From the NCBI GenBank assembly GCA_964428845.1, contig CAYRZH010000008.1, forward strand, positions 1-22,599: 22,599 nucleotides of DNA, written 5' to 3'. Each line of letters begins with the position of its first letter. Positions within the stretch are counted from its first letter, which is position 1. The position numbers were made by a program, and so were the translations under genes. Of the stretch, positions 622 to 7,027 are shown piece by piece. The notes below the pieces were generated by a model that was not told where the DNA came from, searched no databases, and worked only from the letters and a program-made list of their open reading frames with translations. This DNA is from an uncultured Candidatus Saccharibacteria bacterium (GTDB lineage Bacteria > Patescibacteriota > Minisyncoccia > Phycocordibacterales > DATGWK01).

Positions 622-1995
622 GTGTTCAAGTGGCTCACAAACTCATGGCCATGGAAATGGATCAAAACCCTTAGGAGAAAACAACCGCCGGCACCAGTGC
701 CTCCGGGCCCCTTGCCTTCAGTGACTGCGCCAGTAGCACCTGCCTCGGTAGTTCCGACATCGACTGTTCCTGCCGCCCCTTCTCCCGCACCTTCGGCAAC
801 TCCCGTTCCCTCCCCCGTTCCGACCTCGACAGGTGTTCCATTGGAAGATGACCCCCCGCCACAACCTTCACAGCCTTATTCTCTCGACTTTTTCTGGGAA
901 ATTGTGACCAAGACTTGTTTCGCACTTCTGGTTCTAGACGTTATCATCGGTGTACTTGTGGGACTGCTAACATCAGATCTTCAGACCGGTATAACCACCG
1001 GAGGTCTGATGCTTCTGTTCCAGATTATCTATGCCGTCCTAAGCATCAGAAAAATCGGGGAAAATGAGAATGGTGCACGCCTCTTTTTTGGCCGCCCGAT
1101 TAACAATCTGGTGTCCGGTCCAGCGTTTGTTCCTCTGCTTGTAATGAAGCTAATCAAAGCACCAAAAATCATCGTCCAGCTAGAGATCCCCACTGACCCG
1201 GAGTTCATCTATCGAGCTTCGACAGATGGGTCTCACATCCCCCAGGAATTGGTAGACGCCGGGTACAGGCCTCCGATCAGAACCACGTTCGCTAAGGACC
1301 CCAACTCCAATGAGCCGCTAAGGCAAGAGCTAACGGCAGAAGTTGTACCGGTTGTGCAACTTTTTGTTCACGATCTATGCATATTCCTCGGAACAATCGG
1401 TTCATTTGAGAAGTTGAGAAGACAGATAGAAGATACGTGTGTGGCATTTGCTAACCAACAGCTCGCGAGAAAGGTGCTAGCCGACGTTAGGAAGGATCTG
1501 GGGAATGAAAATGTTGCCCTGCGAACGGAAATCCGTAGGGCAATTGGAAACTGGGGCGTCACTCTGAAAACGGCACTAATCAAGGAGATTCGACTCTCCC
1601 ACGCTCTAAACACATCTATCCAGAGCGCTTCGGATGAAGCAGCAAAGGCCTTGGGAGCAATTATCAAGGCCAAAACACTCAAAGCGACAACCGAACTCGA
1701 AGGCCGAGGTAAGGGTGCTGCAGAGAGAGCGGTTCTGCGCGGAAGGACGACAGGGCTCAAGGACATGGCCAAGAGGCTCAAGGTCCCGATGCCGACAGTT
1801 CTTGGTGCAGAGGTCGCGAGGGATGTTGCAAAAAATCCAGGTCAAACAGTAATCCTGGGAGGAGAAGACGGTTTTGCCGATTTCGCAAAGATCGCAGCCG
1901 GAGTTGGAGGAGCGCTAAAGGGTATGGGAAAACCGAAATCCACTCCCCCCGCCTCCTCTATCACACCACCAACGACTCCCCCTTCGACAACGTGA
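622..1995 (+). CDS. SPFH/band-7 (stomatin/prohibitin/HflK-C-like) membrane protein with ~95-aa proline-rich N-terminal extension and P/T-rich C-terminal tail; GTG start
   Basis: GTG at 622 sits 8 nt after AAAAGGGG. The product has a Pro/Ala/Ser/Thr-rich N-terminus, then one or two TM helices (CFALLVLDVIIGVLVGLL...GGLMLLFQIIYAVLSI). It continues with an SPFH-like core (FFGRPINNLVSGPAFVPLLVMKLIKAPKIIVQLEIPTDPE ... IRRAIGNWGVTLKTALIKEIRLSHALNTSIQSASDEAAKALGAIIKAKTLKATTELEGRGKGAAERA), which matches the WG(I/V)xVxxVxIxDIxxP...AERxxxAxIxxAEGE pattern of band-7 proteins. C-terminus is PKSTPPASSITPPTTPPSTT. Confidence 0.7.
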   Translation: MFKWLTNSWPWKWIKTLRRKQPPAPVPPGPLPSVTAPVAPASVVPTSTVPAAPSPAPSATPVPSPVPTSTGVPLEDDPPPQPSQPYSLDFFWEIVTKTCFALLVLDVIIGVLVGLLTSDLQTGITTGGLMLLFQIIYAVLSIRKIGENENGARLFFGRPINNLVSGPAFVPLLVMKLIKAPKIIVQLEIPTDPEFIYRASTDGSHIPQELVDAGYRPPIRTTFAKDPNSNEPLRQELTAEVVPVVQLFVHDLCIFLGTIGSFEKLRRQIEDTCVAFANQQLARKVLADVRKDLGNENVALRTEIRRAIGNWGVTLKTALIKEIRLSHALNTSIQSASDEAAKALGAIIKAKTLKATTELEGRGKGAAERAVLRGRTTGLKDMAKRLKVPMPTVLGAEVARDVAKNPGQTVILGGEDGFADFAKIAAGVGGALKGMGKPKSTPPASSITPPTTPPSTT

Positions 1996-2139: not shown

Positions 2140-3042
2140 ATGACATCAATCATTGGTCCGGTCGTAGTGGGAATTGTTCTTGGGTGTATTGTGATTCTTA
2201 TAAGAATCCTCGACAAACCGAAAGTGATGACAGATACGGATGGCAAGGTGAGGGCAACGCCAGTCAGTGCTCGTGGAGATGAACCAAAATCAGCACTGGA
2301 AAAGATGGCTGAAGGGTGGAATAAAATCAGGGCAAATATGAGGTTCCTCTACCCCGTGTTTGTTCTTGTTCCCTACTATCTGACAGCCATTGTCTTGTAT
2401 CACTACAAGTCAGTGCTATGGGAACCATGGCCGAAGAATCGTCTGCTCTTTTTCGTGCTCATCCCGGTAGCTCTTTTGATCCCAGTCGGGATTAGAGTAA
2501 CAACTCCTCCCGAAAAGAAGGGGAGAAGAAAACTACCGCTGGCGTTGAGCTTCGTGTTCCTTGGTTCTCTTGTCTACTTTGCCCTTGAGAAGTACTCGGA
2601 AACTGAATGGGGATCCCGGTACGTAGCAAGACTCGAAGACTCTTACGACAGACACCTCGCCACAAAAGCAGAGGCAACCAAACCCCCGCGCTGGCTATGG
2701 ACTAATACAGTGCCGACGGGTGTCAAGCTGAAGAGGGGGGCTGAACATTCTTCAGCCTCCCCACCCTATGTGGCACGGATTCTCGCCGATGACGATGTCC
2801 TTTTCGAGTTTGTCTACTTTTACCCACACAGCTTCGAGGCCAAGTTGCAAGTGGCCCACTTCAGGTGGCCTAAGGCATCTGACCCACTAAAGGGAACCTG
2901 GAGTAAAGTCAACCCGCCCGACAAGGGTGAATGGTACCTCGCACCAAACGGAGCTGGAAACGGCTACGTGGGTTGGTTCACTTCAGAGGATGCTGGGGGC
3001 GACAAGATCGTCATGTGGCTTTACCAGGACCCGGCGAAGTAG
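2140..3042 (+). CDS. Hypothetical integral membrane protein (about 4 TM helices plus ~150-aa C-terminal soluble domain)
   Basis: ORF with RBS. Hydrophobic helices: IIGPVVVGIVLGCIVILIRIL, FLYPVFVLVPYYLTAIVLY, LLFFVLIPVALLIPVGI, LALSFVFLGSLVYFAL. Then a hydrophilic C-terminal region (…GEWYLAPNGAGNGYVGWFTSEDAGGDKIVMWLYQDPAK). No family recognised. It sits directly after the SPFH gene, so an NfeD-like partner is possible but unproven. Confidence 0.55.
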   Translation: MTSIIGPVVVGIVLGCIVILIRILDKPKVMTDTDGKVRATPVSARGDEPKSALEKMAEGWNKIRANMRFLYPVFVLVPYYLTAIVLYHYKSVLWEPWPKNRLLFFVLIPVALLIPVGIRVTTPPEKKGRRKLPLALSFVFLGSLVYFALEKYSETEWGSRYVARLEDSYDRHLATKAEATKPPRWLWTNTVPTGVKLKRGAEHSSASPPYVARILADDDVLFEFVYFYPHSFEAKLQVAHFRWPKASDPLKGTWSKVNPPDKGEWYLAPNGAGNGYVGWFTSEDAGGDKIVMWLYQDPAK

Positions 3043-3073: not shown

Positions 3074-3101
3074 GAGCGGGACCTGGTCCCGCTCTTTTTT
3101 T
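3074..3101 (+). terminator. Rho-independent terminator after the 2140..3042 gene
   Basis: GAGCGGGA(3074-3081)/TCCCGCTC(3087-3094) perfect 8-bp stem, loop cctgg, then TTTTTTT (3095-3101). Confidence 0.6.
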
Positions 3102-3249: not shown

Positions 3250-3540
3250 TTACCTAAAAATCCAGCTCGGCAGACCAAACGACCCACCTGTCCCACTATC
3301 GATCCCGAACGTGCCAAGAATGATTTTTATAATCCCAAACACAGAGATCATAATGAACATCCCAATAATCCCCCACATTATATTGCGCTTACCCTTTTGC
3401 CGAGCATCTTCACTACCAGCATTACCGATAAACTGAACTAGCCCCCAGAAAAAGACGATGAGCGCAACCACAAACAGGAGACCAATGAGGGGATTGAGGA
3501 TAAATTTATTTATCCCAAAGAGAAGCTGGTTCAAATTCAA
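3250..3540 (-). CDS. VirB2/TrbC-like putative T4SS-type pilin paralog 1 (96 aa; lacks N-terminal signal peptide)
   Basis: Shares the conserved core of the array: LIGLLFVVALIVFFWGLVQFIGNAGSEDARQKGKRNIMWGIIGMFIMISVFGII. That is hydrophobic helix, then GxxExxRxKGK loop, then second hydrophobic helix. It starts directly at the mature-like N-terminus (NLNQLLFGINKFI) with no signal peptide. Confidence 0.6.
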   Translation of the reverse strand: MNLNQLLFGINKFILNPLIGLLFVVALIVFFWGLVQFIGNAGSEDARQKGKRNIMWGIIGMFIMISVFGIIKIILGTFGIDSGTGGSFGLPSWIFR

Positions 3541-3551
3541 ATTAGAGGTTG

Positions 3552-3905
3552 TTAACGATTAACACTAGGAATTGACTGGTTTGATGGTACGGTCCCTAAA
3601 TCGAGAGCCTCTTGAAGCCATCTCACAAGGCCCCAGACCGAGACTATGACAAAAAGGGCGACTATACCCCAGATCATGATGTGCTTGCCCTTGCCTCTCT
3701 CCTCTTCATCACCAGACGCAAGAATGAACTTTGCAAGACCCCAGAAGAAGTATAGGAGGGCGATAGCGCCAACAATTGGGATCAGAAGTTCAATAATGTT
3801 TCCAAAAGAATTCACTAGCTCTTCGAGATTCCCGAGTTGGGCATTGGCAACAGCCGGCAAGACAGTCATAAGAAGTAGAGCTCCTAAAATCAATGTTTTT
3901 TTCAT
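3552..3905 (-). CDS. VirB2/TrbC-like putative T4SS-type pilin paralog 2 (117 aa)
   Basis: Signal peptide MKKTLILGALLLMTVLPAVANA|Q. Then IIELLIPIVGAIALLYFFWGLAKFILASGDEEERGKGKHIMIWGIVALFVIVSVWGLV, a two-helix hairpin with a charged loop. Confidence 0.7.
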   Translation of the reverse strand: MKKTLILGALLLMTVLPAVANAQLGNLEELVNSFGNIIELLIPIVGAIALLYFFWGLAKFILASGDEEERGKGKHIMIWGIVALFVIVSVWGLVRWLQEALDLGTVPSNQSIPSVNR

Positions 3906-4010: not shown

Positions 4011-4388
4011 TTAACAGTTTGCGGTACCTGGAGGGCAAAATGTCCCCGAAGGAAGAGTCATTGGTACGCTGTCTAGAAGAGCCTCTTGGATGAAGAAGAC
4101 AATACCCCATATCGAGACTATGACAAACAGGGCGGCTATACCCCAGACCATGATGTGCTTGCCCTCTTCCCTGGCTTTCTCGTCTCCGGCATGCAAGATA
4201 AGTTTTGCGAGGCCCCAGAAGAAATATAGGAGAGCGATGGCGGCGACAATTGGAATAAGCAGATCGATTATCTCTTTGGCTCCATTGATAAGTTCTTTTA
4301 TACCAGTAAAACCCTGGGCCAGAGCAACATTTGCCCAGAGAAGATAGAAAAATATGCTAAATACAATTTTTTTCATATTAAATTTCAC
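4011..4388 (-). CDS. VirB2/TrbC-like putative T4SS-type pilin paralog 3 (125 aa)
   Basis: Signal peptide …LWANVALA|QG. Core IIDLLIPIVAAIALLYFFWGLAKLILHAGDEKAREEGKHIMVWGIAALFVIVSIWGIV. C-terminal CPPGTANC Cys pair. About 85% nt identity to paralog 2 across the core, by eye. Confidence 0.7.
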   Translation of the reverse strand: MKFNMKKIVFSIFFYLLWANVALAQGFTGIKELINGAKEIIDLLIPIVAAIALLYFFWGLAKLILHAGDEKAREEGKHIMVWGIAALFVIVSIWGIVFFIQEALLDSVPMTLPSGTFCPPGTANC

Positions 4389-4776
4389 GTGTTGGTAAAC
4401 GCGGTATTCCTAAGTTGCTAAAACCAAATTCTCCCTGTAGAAACTCGATGATTCCCCACACGGAGACCAATACAAAAAGAGCAATAATCCCCCATTTCAT
4501 TATCTGCTTGCCCTCTTCTCTGGCTTTCTCGTCCCCGGCCCTCAAGATAAACTTTGCCAACCCCCAAAAAAATACAAGCAGAGCGATGCCTATCACAAGA
4601 GGGAGAGCAGAATAAATAAGATCAGTGAAGACCAAAAAAACATCACAAAGTGATTCGGGTGGAGTCCGGACAGCACAATCCGACGGGAAAGCAAAAGTTA
4701 AGGTTGGTAAAAAAAGAGTAAAGAGTATCACCAAAAAACGCGAACTAAAAAACACTATAGATTTCTTATTGATCAT
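4378..4776 (-). CDS. VirB2/TrbC-like putative T4SS-type pilin paralog 4 (132 aa)
   Basis: Signal peptide …LPTLTFA|F. Mature N-terminus contains a Cys pair (SDCAVRTPPESLC). Core LPLVIGIALLVFFWGLAKFILRAGDEKAREEGKQIMKWGIIALFVLVSVWGII. Overlaps paralog 3 by 11 nt. Confidence 0.7.
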   Translation of the reverse strand: MINKKSIVFFSSRFLVILFTLFLPTLTFAFPSDCAVRTPPESLCDVFLVFTDLIYSALPLVIGIALLVFFWGLAKFILRAGDEKAREEGKQIMKWGIIALFVLVSVWGIIEFLQGEFGFSNLGIPRLPTREI

Positions 4777-5189
4777 GATGGGATTGGAGAAGTCGGACTA
4801 CATATAGCAGGAGCGATTTGGCAGACTGTGTTCTGGATAGCGAGAGCAATAGCCCAAGCACCAAGAAGTACGGCCGCCCCGACTACTACCCACAGAAACG
4901 TATGCTTGGCTTTCTGGAGCTTGGTTTCATCACCCCCCGCGGTAACAAAAAGAAAACCAGAGTAGATTATGAAAAAAACGACAACGACGGCCCCGATCGG
5001 CAAAACAACATTCTCCAAAACTTCTTTTACAAAGGCGTAAATACTAGTTACGTTGTTTGCTAGAGGATTCTGAAGCTTCGGTGGGTCTCCGGCATTGTAT
5101 TGTCCCGGCTGTGCCAAGATAAGTGCGGCAGGAGACACAGCAAGAAGGAAAATACTTAGAGAGAAGAAAATGATCTTAAAGACTTTCAT
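4773..5189 (-). CDS. Divergent VirB2/TrbC-like pilin paralog 5 (138 aa)
   Basis: Signal peptide MKVFKIIFFSLSIFLLAVSPAALILA|QP. Core VLPIGAVVVVFFIIYSGFLFVTAGGDETKLQKAKHTFLWVVVGAAVLLGAWAIALAI. C-terminal CQIAPAIC Cys pair. Shares a 4-nt ATGA overlap with paralog 4. Confidence 0.65.
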   Translation of the reverse strand: MKVFKIIFFSLSIFLLAVSPAALILAQPGQYNAGDPPKLQNPLANNVTSIYAFVKEVLENVVLPIGAVVVVFFIIYSGFLFVTAGGDETKLQKAKHTFLWVVVGAAVLLGAWAIALAIQNTVCQIAPAICSPTSPIPS

Positions 5190-5283
5190 CGGGATAATTT
5201 TAACAAATACAAGCCACTACAGCAAAGGCTCAAAAGCTACAGAGAGTCGCCAGGAGCTTCTTTTGGATAGACCTCGGCAGGAC

Positions 5284-5733
5284 TTAGTTGAACCTCTCAA
5301 GCAAGTCGTAATAACTACAATTTGGATCGGCTGGGTCACAGAGAAGCGCGCTCGTAATCGTTCTTACTATGAGCCAGGCTGTGAGGACAAAGATAAAACC
5401 AATGAGAACTTTGGTAAATATCTCCTTGGCTTTTGAGACCTGCCCCGCATTCCCCGCCGCCGTAAGAAAAAGATAGCCTGCATAGGCAAAGGCTATGGCA
5501 GACAGGGGTATGGAGATCGAGATAAAGAAATTCATGATGTTGTGCGCCAGCCTAAGGAGCGCGGCAAAATCACACTTAAGACCCTTGCCATCGATACTCA
5601 CGCCATCACATGGAACAATAGGACCCGGTGACACACTTTGACCAAAGACGGTCGGAGCCACCATAAAAGCCAAAAGTACAACCGGAACAATGATCAGAAA
5701 AACTTTTCTTAAATTTATGATTTTATTTTTCAT
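5284..5733 (-). CDS. Divergent VirB2/TrbC-like pilin paralog 6 (149 aa)
   Basis: Signal peptide …LAFMVAPTVFG|QS. N-terminal CDGVSIDGKGLKC Cys pair. Core IPLSAIAFAYAGYLFLTAAGNAGQVSKAKEIFTKVLIGFIFVLTAWLIV. C-terminal CDPADPNC Cys pair. Overlapped 11 nt by the upstream SBP-like gene. Confidence 0.65.
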   Translation of the reverse strand: MKNKIINLRKVFLIIVPVVLLAFMVAPTVFGQSVSPGPIVPCDGVSIDGKGLKCDFAALLRLAHNIMNFFISISIPLSAIAFAYAGYLFLTAAGNAGQVSKAKEIFTKVLIGFIFVLTAWLIVRTITSALLCDPADPNCSYYDLLERFN

Positions 5734-7027
5734 TTAAAAGAAGATTGAGTTCAGAACTCGCCTTCGAGATTGCCTCTGTGGGCATAGCCCTTCCGCCAGT
5801 CACCGACTCTATCATTTCTCTAAACACATTTTCTGTTTTCGACACCTCTGGAGAAAGCCAGCCACGAGCCTGGATGGCACCATCGTAGAAAACCGAAGAA
5901 AAAGTACCGGTGGGCTTGTTCAGAAGAAGACTCCTGTGGACTGGCGGCAAGCCGGTAGCCTTGCTCAATTCGGCGATGGCCGCCGGGGTAGTCATGAGCA
6001 TCGCCGCCTTGAATGCGCCGATAATATTTTTTGAATTTTTGGGTACCGCAAGCCCGTTCATCCGGCCGAACGTAATGACCCGTGGTGAATCCTTGGATTG
6101 GAGTATAGGGGCTACGTCGAAGTTTAAATTGGGATTCTTCTGTCTCAAGTCTTCTGCTTCTGAAGCAAAACCGAAGTAAAGCGCTAGATTACCAGAAAGA
6201 AAGAAGCTTTTTGAGGATGGCAGCGAGCGGTTCCAAGAATAAAATGGTTTAAGTGGGTTTGAAAATTCGGTATAAAAACTTAGGGCTCTGATAGCTGGTG
6301 GTACTGGAAAGTTTAGCGGGCTGTTAAAAATATTATCGAAGGAATTGTTCTCCCTGCGAACCACGATGGGACTCCCCGCCTGCATAGTGAGAAGACTGAA
6401 AAGCTCCAAGGCATGAGTGACGTTCCCGTATTCACCGAGGGCAACCGCGCTTTCGGTGATATTTAGATTGTTATCTTTTTTGGTCAGTTTTTCCGATAGA
6501 TCGTATAGTTCACTCCAATTCTTGGGTGGGATACTGATACCTGCACTAGAAAAAGTATCTCTGTTCCAATACATAACCATCGGATCTACCGTAAAAGGCA
6601 GAGCTATGGCGCCATCGCTCTTGAGGTAGATTTCTCCTTCTTCTATAAAATTCTCTTTAAATTTCCTCTCCGAGTAGCTTTCAAAAGGAATTGTCACTAC
6701 TTTATCTTGATGTTTAACTATAGAATTTTCAGCCAGGAAGAAAAGGTCCGGACCACTTTGCGAGGCGAGCGCCTCGATGAAATCCTCATCGAACGTCGCT
6801 TCGTTCTTTTCTACGTATGCTATGGCAACAGTCTTATCTGAAGAAATCTTAGAATCTCGCAGAAACCTATCAAACCTCGCCTTCTCCATCGTGCCCCAGA
6901 CAACGACACTTCCAAAACTGTTGGACGGTCCACTTCTTCCCCCAAATGCAAAAATAAGAACTCCAATAACAATAAATACCGCGAAGGCTCCGATAAGCAC
7001 CCACTGGAAAATTGACATTTCTTTCAT
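5723..7027 (-). CDS. N-terminally TM-anchored extracellular solute-binding protein family-1-like (sugar-ABC SBP-like) protein; no cognate permease/ATPase in the window
   Basis: N-terminal anchor IFQWVLIGAFAVFIVIGVLIFAF. The motif MVMYWNRDTFSSAGISIPPKNWSELYDLSEKL resembles the MalE-type SBP signature (YNKDLF..AGL..PPKTWDEL). Length of 434 aa fits an SBP. Confidence 0.5.
   Translation of the reverse strand: MKEMSIFQWVLIGAFAVFIVIGVLIFAFGGRSGPSNSFGSVVVWGTMEKARFDRFLRDSKISSDKTVAIAYVEKNEATFDEDFIEALASQSGPDLFFLAENSIVKHQDKVVTIPFESYSERKFKENFIEEGEIYLKSDGAIALPFTVDPMVMYWNRDTFSSAGISIPPKNWSELYDLSEKLTKKDNNLNITESAVALGEYGNVTHALELFSLLTMQAGSPIVVRRENNSFDNIFNSPLNFPVPPAIRALSFYTEFSNPLKPFYSWNRSLPSSKSFFLSGNLALYFGFASEAEDLRQKNPNLNFDVAPILQSKDSPRVITFGRMNGLAVPKNSKNIIGAFKAAMLMTTPAAIAELSKATGLPPVHRSLLLNKPTGTFSSVFYDGAIQARGWLSPEVSKTENVFREMIESVTGGRAMPTEAISKASSELNLLLNEK

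Follow-up and report, generated by a model that had tools for sequence, protein, structure and literature searches.

Classical pilins such as Agrobacterium VirB2, RP4 TrbC and F TraA carry a long signal peptide and two helices connected by a basic loop. Both termini lie on the extracytoplasmic or outer face, as seen in the F- and T-pilus structures, and these ends are protected by head-to-tail cyclisation (VirB2, TrbC, TrhA) or by N-acetylation (TraA). Tandem arrays of VirB2-like pilin genes are known from Patescibacteria, across which 441 'VirB2 arrays' were catalogued, each with 2-11 VirB2-like pilins whose variability was suggested to aid host adaptation (PMC12102498). In the Saccharibacterium Southlakia epibionticum ML1, a six-gene PF18895 array (SEML1_0014-0019) is essential and lies inside a type IV secretion system (T4SS) cluster (PMC10633639 and its supplement; PMC12857230). 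According to a review, a filament has been shown for no VirB2-like protein of Patescibacteria (PMC12857230). VirB2 paralogs of Anaplasma have hypervariable N- and C-terminal regions, one of them 'preceding an N-terminal cysteine' (PMC3556328). Here, we describe an array of six tandem pilin genes, preceded by a gene for a solute-binding protein (SBP)-like protein, on a stretch of 22,599 nucleotides (contig CAYRZH010000008.1 of assembly GCA_964428845.1, from an uncultured Candidatus Saccharibacteria bacterium), referred to below as the window.

An initial annotation of positions 4,011-5,733 noted a conserved two-helix core with a different short, cysteine-bracketed segment in each paralog, and interpreted these segments as surface-exposed pilin tips under diversifying selection. 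We number the proteins types 1 to 6 in array order along the minus strand; copies 6, 5, 4 and 3 of that annotation are types 1, 2, 3 and 4. The sequence feature is real and non-random, whereas the evolutionary interpretation attached to it is largely wrong. Judged from the sequences, the six types are an old, fixed and ordered set found in many related genomes. They are probably distinct subunits of one assembly, in which the paired-cysteine tails of types 1-4 would be stapled by disulfides.

Orthology and order of the six pilin types

Related loci were retrieved by alignment of type 5, its orthologues and window types 3 and 4. One hidden Markov model was built per array position and used to classify 530 pilin open reading frames (ORFs), taken from the window together with 92 related loci (87 loci in all once redundancy was removed). 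These loci derive from Zambryski-, Taylor-, Wolfe-, Campbell- and Nomurabacteria and other Paceibacteria/Parcubacteria metagenome-assembled genomes, which places the window in this part of the Patescibacteria. Syntenic contigs carry gyrA, sometimes a methyltransferase gene, the SBP-like gene, five to seven pilin genes and convergent genes, one of which is often Band_7-like.

In 76 of the 87 loci, the types run monotonically in the order 1-2-3-4-5-6, and types 1, 2, 3, 5 and 6 at least are present in 57. Arrays of six genes are the most common (41 loci), followed by arrays of seven (21). The SBP-like gene, which opens the cassette in the window and shares 11 nt with the start of the type-1 pilin gene, likewise lies directly upstream on the same strand in 76/87 loci, most exceptions being truncated contigs. 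Its homologues occur in loci L001, L006, L008, L010, L011 and L013-L092, frequently overlapping the first pilin gene. The encoded protein has weak NCBIfam similarity to UgpB/MalE-type binding proteins, and no ATP-binding cassette (ABC) permease or ATPase partner was found, either in the window or in the flanking sequence of the six loci for which gene tables were available.

In terms of bit score, every pilin of the window is nearer to its positional orthologue in the closest array, L001 (51-71% identity), than to any of its siblings. Positional orthology and fixed order together indicate that the paralogs are ancient and differentiated, not recent duplicates. Set beside orthologous arrays, the tails do diverge, as the initial annotation would have it, but the paralogs behave as six ordered types behind a shared upstream gene and not as a diversifying set. 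Among 5.8 billion proteins, the nearest relative of the window's own lineage is 58% identical, and no strain-level relative is present in the databases.

Topology of the hairpin proteins

A hydropathy scan identified two hydrophobic helices and a short charged connecting loop in all six copies, and a signal peptide in five, type 6 being the exception. This type, the shortest copy (82 orthologues), has no cleavable leader, and its N-terminal tail must still cross the membrane. Among 499 distinct relatives from the 87 loci, the sample also used for the cysteine statistics below, lysine plus arginine account for 22.7% of the inter-helix loop versus 4-5% of the tails. The signal peptide ends in a predicted A-x-A↓Q-like site (the arrow marks the cut) in 169 of the 297 relatives that bear one; examples in the window are VFG↓Q, ILA↓Q, ALA↓Q and ANA↓Q. 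A mature N-terminus produced by such a cut could be a pyroglutamate, and Agrobacterium VirB2 is presumably also cut before Gln.

Since a signal peptide leaves the mature N-terminus outside and two transmembrane (TM) helices bring the C-terminus to the same side, the signal peptides and the K/R-rich loop place both cysteine-bearing tails in the extracytoplasmic space, in agreement with the extracellular location first proposed for these segments. The AlphaFold2 model of type 1 consists of the signal-peptide helix and two long helices, at residues 56-91 and 96-131.

Cysteines occur in pairs in the tails

All five cysteine-bracketed strings quoted in the initial annotation were located at minus-strand coordinates within these genes (Table 1), and its description of the proteins was borne out: the hairpin core aligns among the six paralogs, while the tails are unalignable between them. 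Types 1-4 contain 10 cysteines in total, all within the quoted loops, and types 5 and 6 contain none. None of the 10 cysteines falls in the signal peptide, in either core helix or in the inter-helix loop, and the segments are thus not buried in TM helices; C44 of type 3 sits at the N-terminal edge of a hydrophobic stretch, in an amphipathic helix ahead of TM1. With the tails making up about 28% of the four proteins, uniform placement would put all 10 cysteines there with p ~3e-6.

The same distribution is found among the relatives, in which cysteine frequency is 1.48% in N-tails and 0.93% in C-tails, compared with 0.49% in signal peptides, 0.12% in TM1, 0.14% in TM2 and 0 of 6487 residues in the cytoplasmic loop, an approximately 10-fold enrichment in the tails. 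Moreover, single cysteines are scarce. N-tails with zero, one and two cysteines number 391, 8 and 97 (Poisson expectation 139 for one and 30 for two), and the corresponding C-tails number 457, 10 and 31 (expectation 65 and 5). Spacing within a tail ranges from 2 to 30 residues and is mostly 4-15. In a second sample, of 150 global representatives, cysteine makes up 0.35% of cores versus 2.5% of residues outside them, again with an excess of even counts.

An even number of cysteines in exported proteins is an established bioinformatic sign of disulfide-forming lineages. According to crude gene calls, 89 of 109 other exported proteins at the same loci are devoid of cysteine, and those that do bear cysteine are split 14 even to 6 odd, versus 81 even to 139 odd among cytoplasmic-like proteins (Fisher p=0.007); this bias is the signature of a disulfide-forming lineage. 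Cysteines that lie in the tails, are missing from the cytoplasmic loop and come almost only in pairs point to intramolecular disulfides, which we infer to be the most likely state of these pairs.

The cysteine frameworks differ by type. In type 1, the N-tail pair is present in 60 of 63 orthologues, its second cysteine fixed at 15 residues before TM1 in 60, with the motif [LI][IV][PV]-C-[DGN]-G-x(n)-C-x-[FYW]. In the window protein these cysteines are C42 and C54, both kept without exception in 24 homologues as distant as 41% identity, and the loop between the two cysteines varies among orthologues in sequence as well as in length (4 to ~20 residues). A type-1 C-tail pair is found in 4/63, CDPADPNC being limited to the closest relatives (P0001-P0004). 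Of 83 type-2 orthologues, 14 have a C-tail pair and 16 have an N-tail pair; the C-tail loop motif [LVI]C[QE]IAPx(2-5)C, with the orthologue form [LVI]C[QE]IAPxLPxC, is kept in a clade including L001, L006, L008, L013, L014, L016, L020, L089 and others. For type 3, an N-tail pair occurs in 20 of 78 orthologues (N-tail counts of zero, one and two are 56, 1 and 20), and for type 4 a C-tail pair occurs in 10 of 86, at positions that differ between lineages. CPPGTANC of type 4 is lineage-specific and absent from the nearest orthologue, L001_4. Types 5 and 6 are essentially cysteine-free (type 6: N-tail 0/82, C-tail 2/82).

A separate type-2 clade (L025, L027, L028, L045, L050, L051, L059 and L070) has, in place of a pair, one conserved cysteine within the C-terminal motif LGGP[AVSI]C[PA], sometimes together with an N-tail pair, which brings the total to three. 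The lone cysteine may engage in an intermolecular bond or be modified.

Two other uses of the cysteines were considered. In several type-3 orthologues the sequence ...AAVC or ...AASC follows the signal peptide, which prompted us to consider the first cysteine as a lipoprotein acylation site; this was ruled out, as the -1/-3 residues mostly misfit a lipobox and the cysteine strictly co-occurs with a second one. A cross-link between the N- and C-tails of type 1, amounting to pseudo-cyclisation, is less parsimonious, because the N-tail pair occurs without a C-tail pair in 56 of the 60 type-1 orthologues and C-tail pairs stand alone in types 2 and 4.

Rates of change in core and tails

Mean pairwise identity among orthologues is 45-65% in the helices versus 14-35% in most tail segments. 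The helices of type 5 are the most conserved (62-65%), and this type is a candidate for the major subunit. Ratios of nonsynonymous to synonymous substitution rates (dN/dS), calculated by the Nei-Gojobori method from 11 independent close locus pairs, are 0.06 for the core, 0.15 for the N-tail, 0.18 for the C-tail and 0.26 for the signal peptide, values that are rough given a dS of 1.3-1.7, near saturation. At non-synonymous sites, change in the tails is about 2.3 times faster than in the core, and the tails contain nearly all insertions and deletions (142 unaligned residues versus 1 in the core).

Near-identical copies of the locus from separate samples (L001/L002/L003 and L011/L012) have 0 single-nucleotide polymorphisms (SNPs) in their arrays. 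L001 does differ from L002 (2239-2292) and from L003 (3870-3939), with mismatches within ~60 bp of contig ends: 11 in gyrA and 8 in the methyltransferase gene, mostly non-synonymous. These look like assembly-end artefacts, not real variation.

The hypervariability claimed at first is therefore upheld in part. Tails do evolve faster than the core and the type-1 loop does vary in length, but the cysteine frameworks are type-specific and conserved, and several loops, including that of type 2, are conserved across orthologues, an outcome that the initial annotation itself had named as counting against its interpretation. Diversifying selection or antigenic variation finds no support in tail ratios below those of the signal peptides, nor in the invariant arrays of near-identical copies. 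The tails rather appear to be under relaxed purifying selection with conserved cysteine staples. With dS so close to saturation, positive selection may still act on individual sites within the loops.

Family membership and comparison with known pilins

All six copies match PF18895 (T4SS_pilin, VirB2-like) with 29.3-56.2 bits, above the gathering cut-off of 26.6, and are in this respect the pilin-family hairpins that the initial annotation took them for. PF04956 (TrbC/VirB2) is matched by type 2 alone, at 25.9 bits (E=1.2e-5), under the gathering cut-off of 27.9; type-2 orthologues carry precomputed PF04956 matches. Five of the six copies also match NF045849, a Mycoplasma integrative and conjugative element (ICE) pilin-like family, with E = 1e-8 to 2e-5 and 24-35 bits, below the curated cut-off of 40. 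The 80-residue model covers the hairpin core, and the tails and cysteine pairs of the window proteins fall outside it. This sub-threshold likeness to the Mbov_0395 family of Mycoplasma ICE conjugal transfer fits the monoderm ancestry proposed for the T4SS of Patescibacteria (PMC12102498).

A profile of the six copies matches 70,438 representative clusters at a threshold of E<=0.001. Pilin polyproteins make up most of the best 150 representatives (P0025-P0174); in these, one signal peptide is followed by 2-13 tandem hairpins per chain, with a topology consistent with alternating out-in-out helices. Examples are P0025 (820 aa, 8 hairpins), P0026 (555 aa, 6 hairpins) and P0038 (227 aa), the last with another C-tail cysteine pair at its C-terminal end. 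Such single-chain proteins lend support to a side-by-side arrangement of different hairpins.

With the arrays of Southlakia and other Patescibacteria, the window array shares PF18895 (with weak PF04956 matches in some copies), tandem divergent hairpins and a monoderm host. It differs in lying outside a T4SS cluster, after an SBP-like gene next to gyrA, and in its six orthologous types kept in fixed order across many genomes. The resemblance to classical pilins comprises the long signal peptide, the two helices, the basic loop, the outward-facing termini and the PF04956 score of type 2; the differences are that paired cysteines are here the candidate end-stabilising device, that the PF04956 match stays below threshold and that the sequences of solved pilins are unmatched. 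The VirB2 arrays of Anaplasma, Bartonella and Rickettsiales are also tandem paralogs with diversity focused in the termini. Those arrays, however, have been interpreted as means by which animal pathogens evade immunity or vary their host range, whereas the window array has conserved positional orthologues, tail dN/dS well below 1 and cysteines in pairs.

The D-region of type IV pilins, for example Pseudomonas PilA, is a disulfide-bonded loop. It resembles the loops described here as a cysteine-bracketed, sequence-variable surface loop on a conserved pilin scaffold, but fold and biogenesis are unrelated: type IV pilins have one N-terminal helix and a globular head, while the window copies have Sec-type signal peptides and two TM helices. 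No class III signal peptide, the kind processed by prepilin peptidase (G↓F/M-x-x-x-E; G↓F-T-L-I-E), is visible in the six window sequences.

Proposed assembly and alternative explanations

We propose that this stretch forms the distal part of an operon conserved on the chromosomes of Paceibacteria/Parcubacteria-type Patescibacteria. The operon would encode a membrane-anchored SBP-like protein and then, in the order of types 1 to 6, six differentiated hairpin proteins related to VirB2/TrbC (PF18895). The first five types would be exported by a Sec-type signal peptide, with an apparent signal peptidase I cut at the A-x-A↓Q-like site, and each protein would insert as a two-helix hairpin whose K/R-rich loop faces the cytoplasm and whose termini both lie outside. 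There, the paired cysteines of types 1 to 4 are most likely joined in intramolecular disulfides, each of which would staple a short loop beside the helix ends, stiffen or protect the exposed ends and present a defined surface loop. The cysteine frameworks are type-specific and inherited among orthologues, near-universal in type 1 and with pairwise gain and loss in types 2 to 4, while the loops appear to drift in length and sequence under relaxed purifying selection. The six paralogs would then be non-interchangeable subunits of one assembly, either a heteromeric pilus or a membrane conduit. It is the combination of ordered orthologous types and conserved frameworks that argues for distinct subunits and not for alternative antigenic variants.

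Several observations weigh against this proposal. A type-2 profile found zero matches among the chain sequences of the PDB even at E<=10, and neither fold searches nor PDB-sequence searches confirmed the VirB2 relationship. The link of the cassette to a type IV secretion machine lacks gene-neighborhood support here: no VirB4, VirB6 or PrgI gene was found in the 22.6-kb window or within 10 kb in the syntenic loci L001, L004, L006, L008, L010 and L011. The case for disulfides draws on parity and location only; both cysteine loops have low confidence in the AlphaFold2 model of type 1, with block means of ~47-70 on the predicted local distance difference test, genes resembling DsbA, DsbB or VKOR are absent from the window and from those flanks that were inspected, and many of the relatives come from groundwater that is possibly anoxic. 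Because the related loci were found with patterns from this very cassette, the statement of a fixed order is limited to this clade. The near-saturated dS also belongs on this side. As regards the neighborhood, proximity to T4SS genes is not an absolute criterion for PF18895, as pilin genes lie near virB4 in only 1135 of 1948 assemblies (PMC12102498). A TraF- or TrbF-like peptidase gene was not seen in the window either.

The absence of VirB4 and VirB6 genes from the window and the flanks of six loci also bears on an alternative that we consider possible, though unlikely, in which no extracellular pilus is made and the SBP-like protein and the pilins build a membrane hetero-oligomer (6 x 2 = 12 helices) serving as a pore or uptake complex, with the cysteine loops as ordinary staples. 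The constant coupling of the SBP-like gene to the array, its translational overlap with the first pilin gene and the retention of the copies as a fixed ordered set would all suit such a complex, and fusions of 6-8 hairpins behind one signal peptide fit poorly with free polymerisation of single subunits. On the other hand, the proteins have Pfam homology to TrbC/VirB2-type pilins, the six-gene array of Southlakia lies inside a T4SS cluster, and no ABC permease or ATPase accompanies the cassette in the places searched.

It is rather improbable that the paralogs are interchangeable surface pilins whose disulfide loops diversify for antigenic variation or shifting receptor/host specificity, as has been proposed for Anaplasma and Bartonella. 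This explanation would account for tails that are unalignable between paralogs, for their faster non-synonymous change and their near-monopoly on insertions and deletions, for the variable loop between the invariant type-1 cysteines and for the lineage-specific placement of the type-4 C-tail pairs. The same speculation has been put forward for Patescibacteria arrays (PMC12102498), and hypervariable termini are reported from Anaplasma (PMC3556328). It is contradicted, however, by the monotonic order and recurrent type composition of the arrays, by the closeness of each window copy to its positional orthologue, by the conservation among orthologues of the cysteine frameworks and of some loops (CQIAP), by tail dN/dS below that of signal peptides and by arrays free of SNPs in near-identical copies from different samples.

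We give still less credit to the view that the pairs are metal ligands or intermolecular cross-links between subunits and not intramolecular disulfides. The type-2 clade with a lone C-terminal cysteine (LGGPxCP) and the proteins with three cysteines, which cannot all pair within one chain, speak in its favor, and oligomerisation could gather pairs from several subunits. Yet strict co-occurrence in the same tail and gain and loss as pairs argue otherwise; the spacing of 2 to 30 is atypical for metal sites, no His, Asp or Glu is conserved beside the pairs, and a stable metal center would need more than two ligands per site. Finally, the idea that six small hydrophobic ORFs show this pattern by chance, invited by there being only 10 cysteines in four window proteins, is refuted by the parity and location statistics in the 499-protein and 150-protein samples and by the invariant type-1 pair.

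Features of the window

The coordinates of the cassette and its loops are given in Table 1. A promoter/terminator scan of the window yielded counts not above those in shuffled sequence.

Table 1. Cassette genes, cysteine loops and the adjoining terminator-like element in the window
Feature	Coordinates	Strand	Remarks
SBP-like gene	5723..7027	-	Membrane-anchored, 434 aa, without Cys; Pfam SBP_bac_1 2.4e-18, SBP_bac_8
Pilin type 1	5284..5733	-	149 aa; signal peptide, N-tail Cys pair, two helices, C-tail Cys pair; PF18895 33.5 bits
Type-1 N-tail loop CDGVSIDGKGLKC	5572..5610	-	Ahead of amphipathic helix
Type-1 C-tail loop CDPADPNC	5317..5340	-	String located in translation
Pilin type 2	4773..5189	-	138 aa; most TrbC/VirB2-like copy; PF18895 29.3 bits
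Type-2 C-tail loop CQIAPAIC	4800..4823	-	String located in translation
Pilin type 3	4378..4776	-	132 aa; PF18895 42.8 bits
Type-3 N-tail loop CAVRTPPESLC	4645..4677	-	Preceded by D; second Cys in or at amphipathic helix before TM1
Pilin type 4	4011..4388	-	125 aa from GTG start, 121 aa from alternative ATG; PF18895 44.4 bits
Type-4 C-terminal loop CPPGTANC	4014..4037	-	String located; second Cys is last residue of protein
Pilin type 5	3552..3905	-	117 aa, without Cys; PF18895 56.2 bits
Pilin type 6	3250..3540	-	96 aa, without Cys or signal peptide; last cassette gene; PF18895 35.9 bits
GC-rich hairpin and T-run	3074..3094		Terminator-like for convergent + strand gene 2140-3042; between cassette and that gene

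The genes around the array are housekeeping genes, namely gyrA, a methyltransferase gene, pth, lepB, hisS, ftsA, ftsZ and tRNA-Leu. Downstream of the cassette, its convergent neighbors encode a weakly Band_7/SPFH-like protein (622-1995, plus strand) and an unannotated membrane protein (2140-3042, plus strand); these Band_7-like and membrane-protein neighbors recur in relatives (L001 7694-10121, L004 2646-4447, L008 4201-7129). Further along, a 939-aa vault-like protein is encoded at 11912-14731 on the plus strand (MVP_shoulder 2.1e-22, Vault_3 6.4e-10, Vault repeat, Band_7), in a stretch with a GC content of 0.52-0.54 versus ~0.41-0.47 for most of the window. A gene of this kind would not be expected in a genome of Patescibacteria type, and horizontal acquisition is a possible origin.

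Implications

VirB2-like pilin arrays in Patescibacteria were already known. Term searches of the Patescibacteria T4SS papers and of PMC3556328, and a literature search on VirB2 and disulfides, revealed no mention of paired cysteines on VirB2-like pilins, of the linkage to an SBP gene or of the fixed six-type order.

As for what the SBP-like partner might do, one speculative and rather doubtful idea is that it and the six pilin types form a heteromeric VirB2-like tube or pore with disulfide-stapled ends, encoded separately from any T4SS cluster, with the SBP-like protein capturing host-derived molecules for uptake. If so, this would be a dedicated nutrient-acquisition organelle of Parcubacteria, and each repeating unit would contain one copy of each of the six subunit types, as is hinted at by the single-chain fusions of 6-8 hairpins.

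Few envelope systems of Patescibacteria have been shown to be essential for their epibiotic life, and VirB2-like pilin arrays are one of them. Ordered subunit types, strict cysteine pairing and an array that in this clade would be co-transcribed with an orphan SBP-like gene turn a vague picture of 'variable pilins' into testable structural predictions, namely that the assembly is heteromeric, that its stability depends on disulfides and that it may be connected to uptake. The pairing rule, moreover, suggests a third way of protecting exposed pilin termini, beside cyclisation and acetylation.

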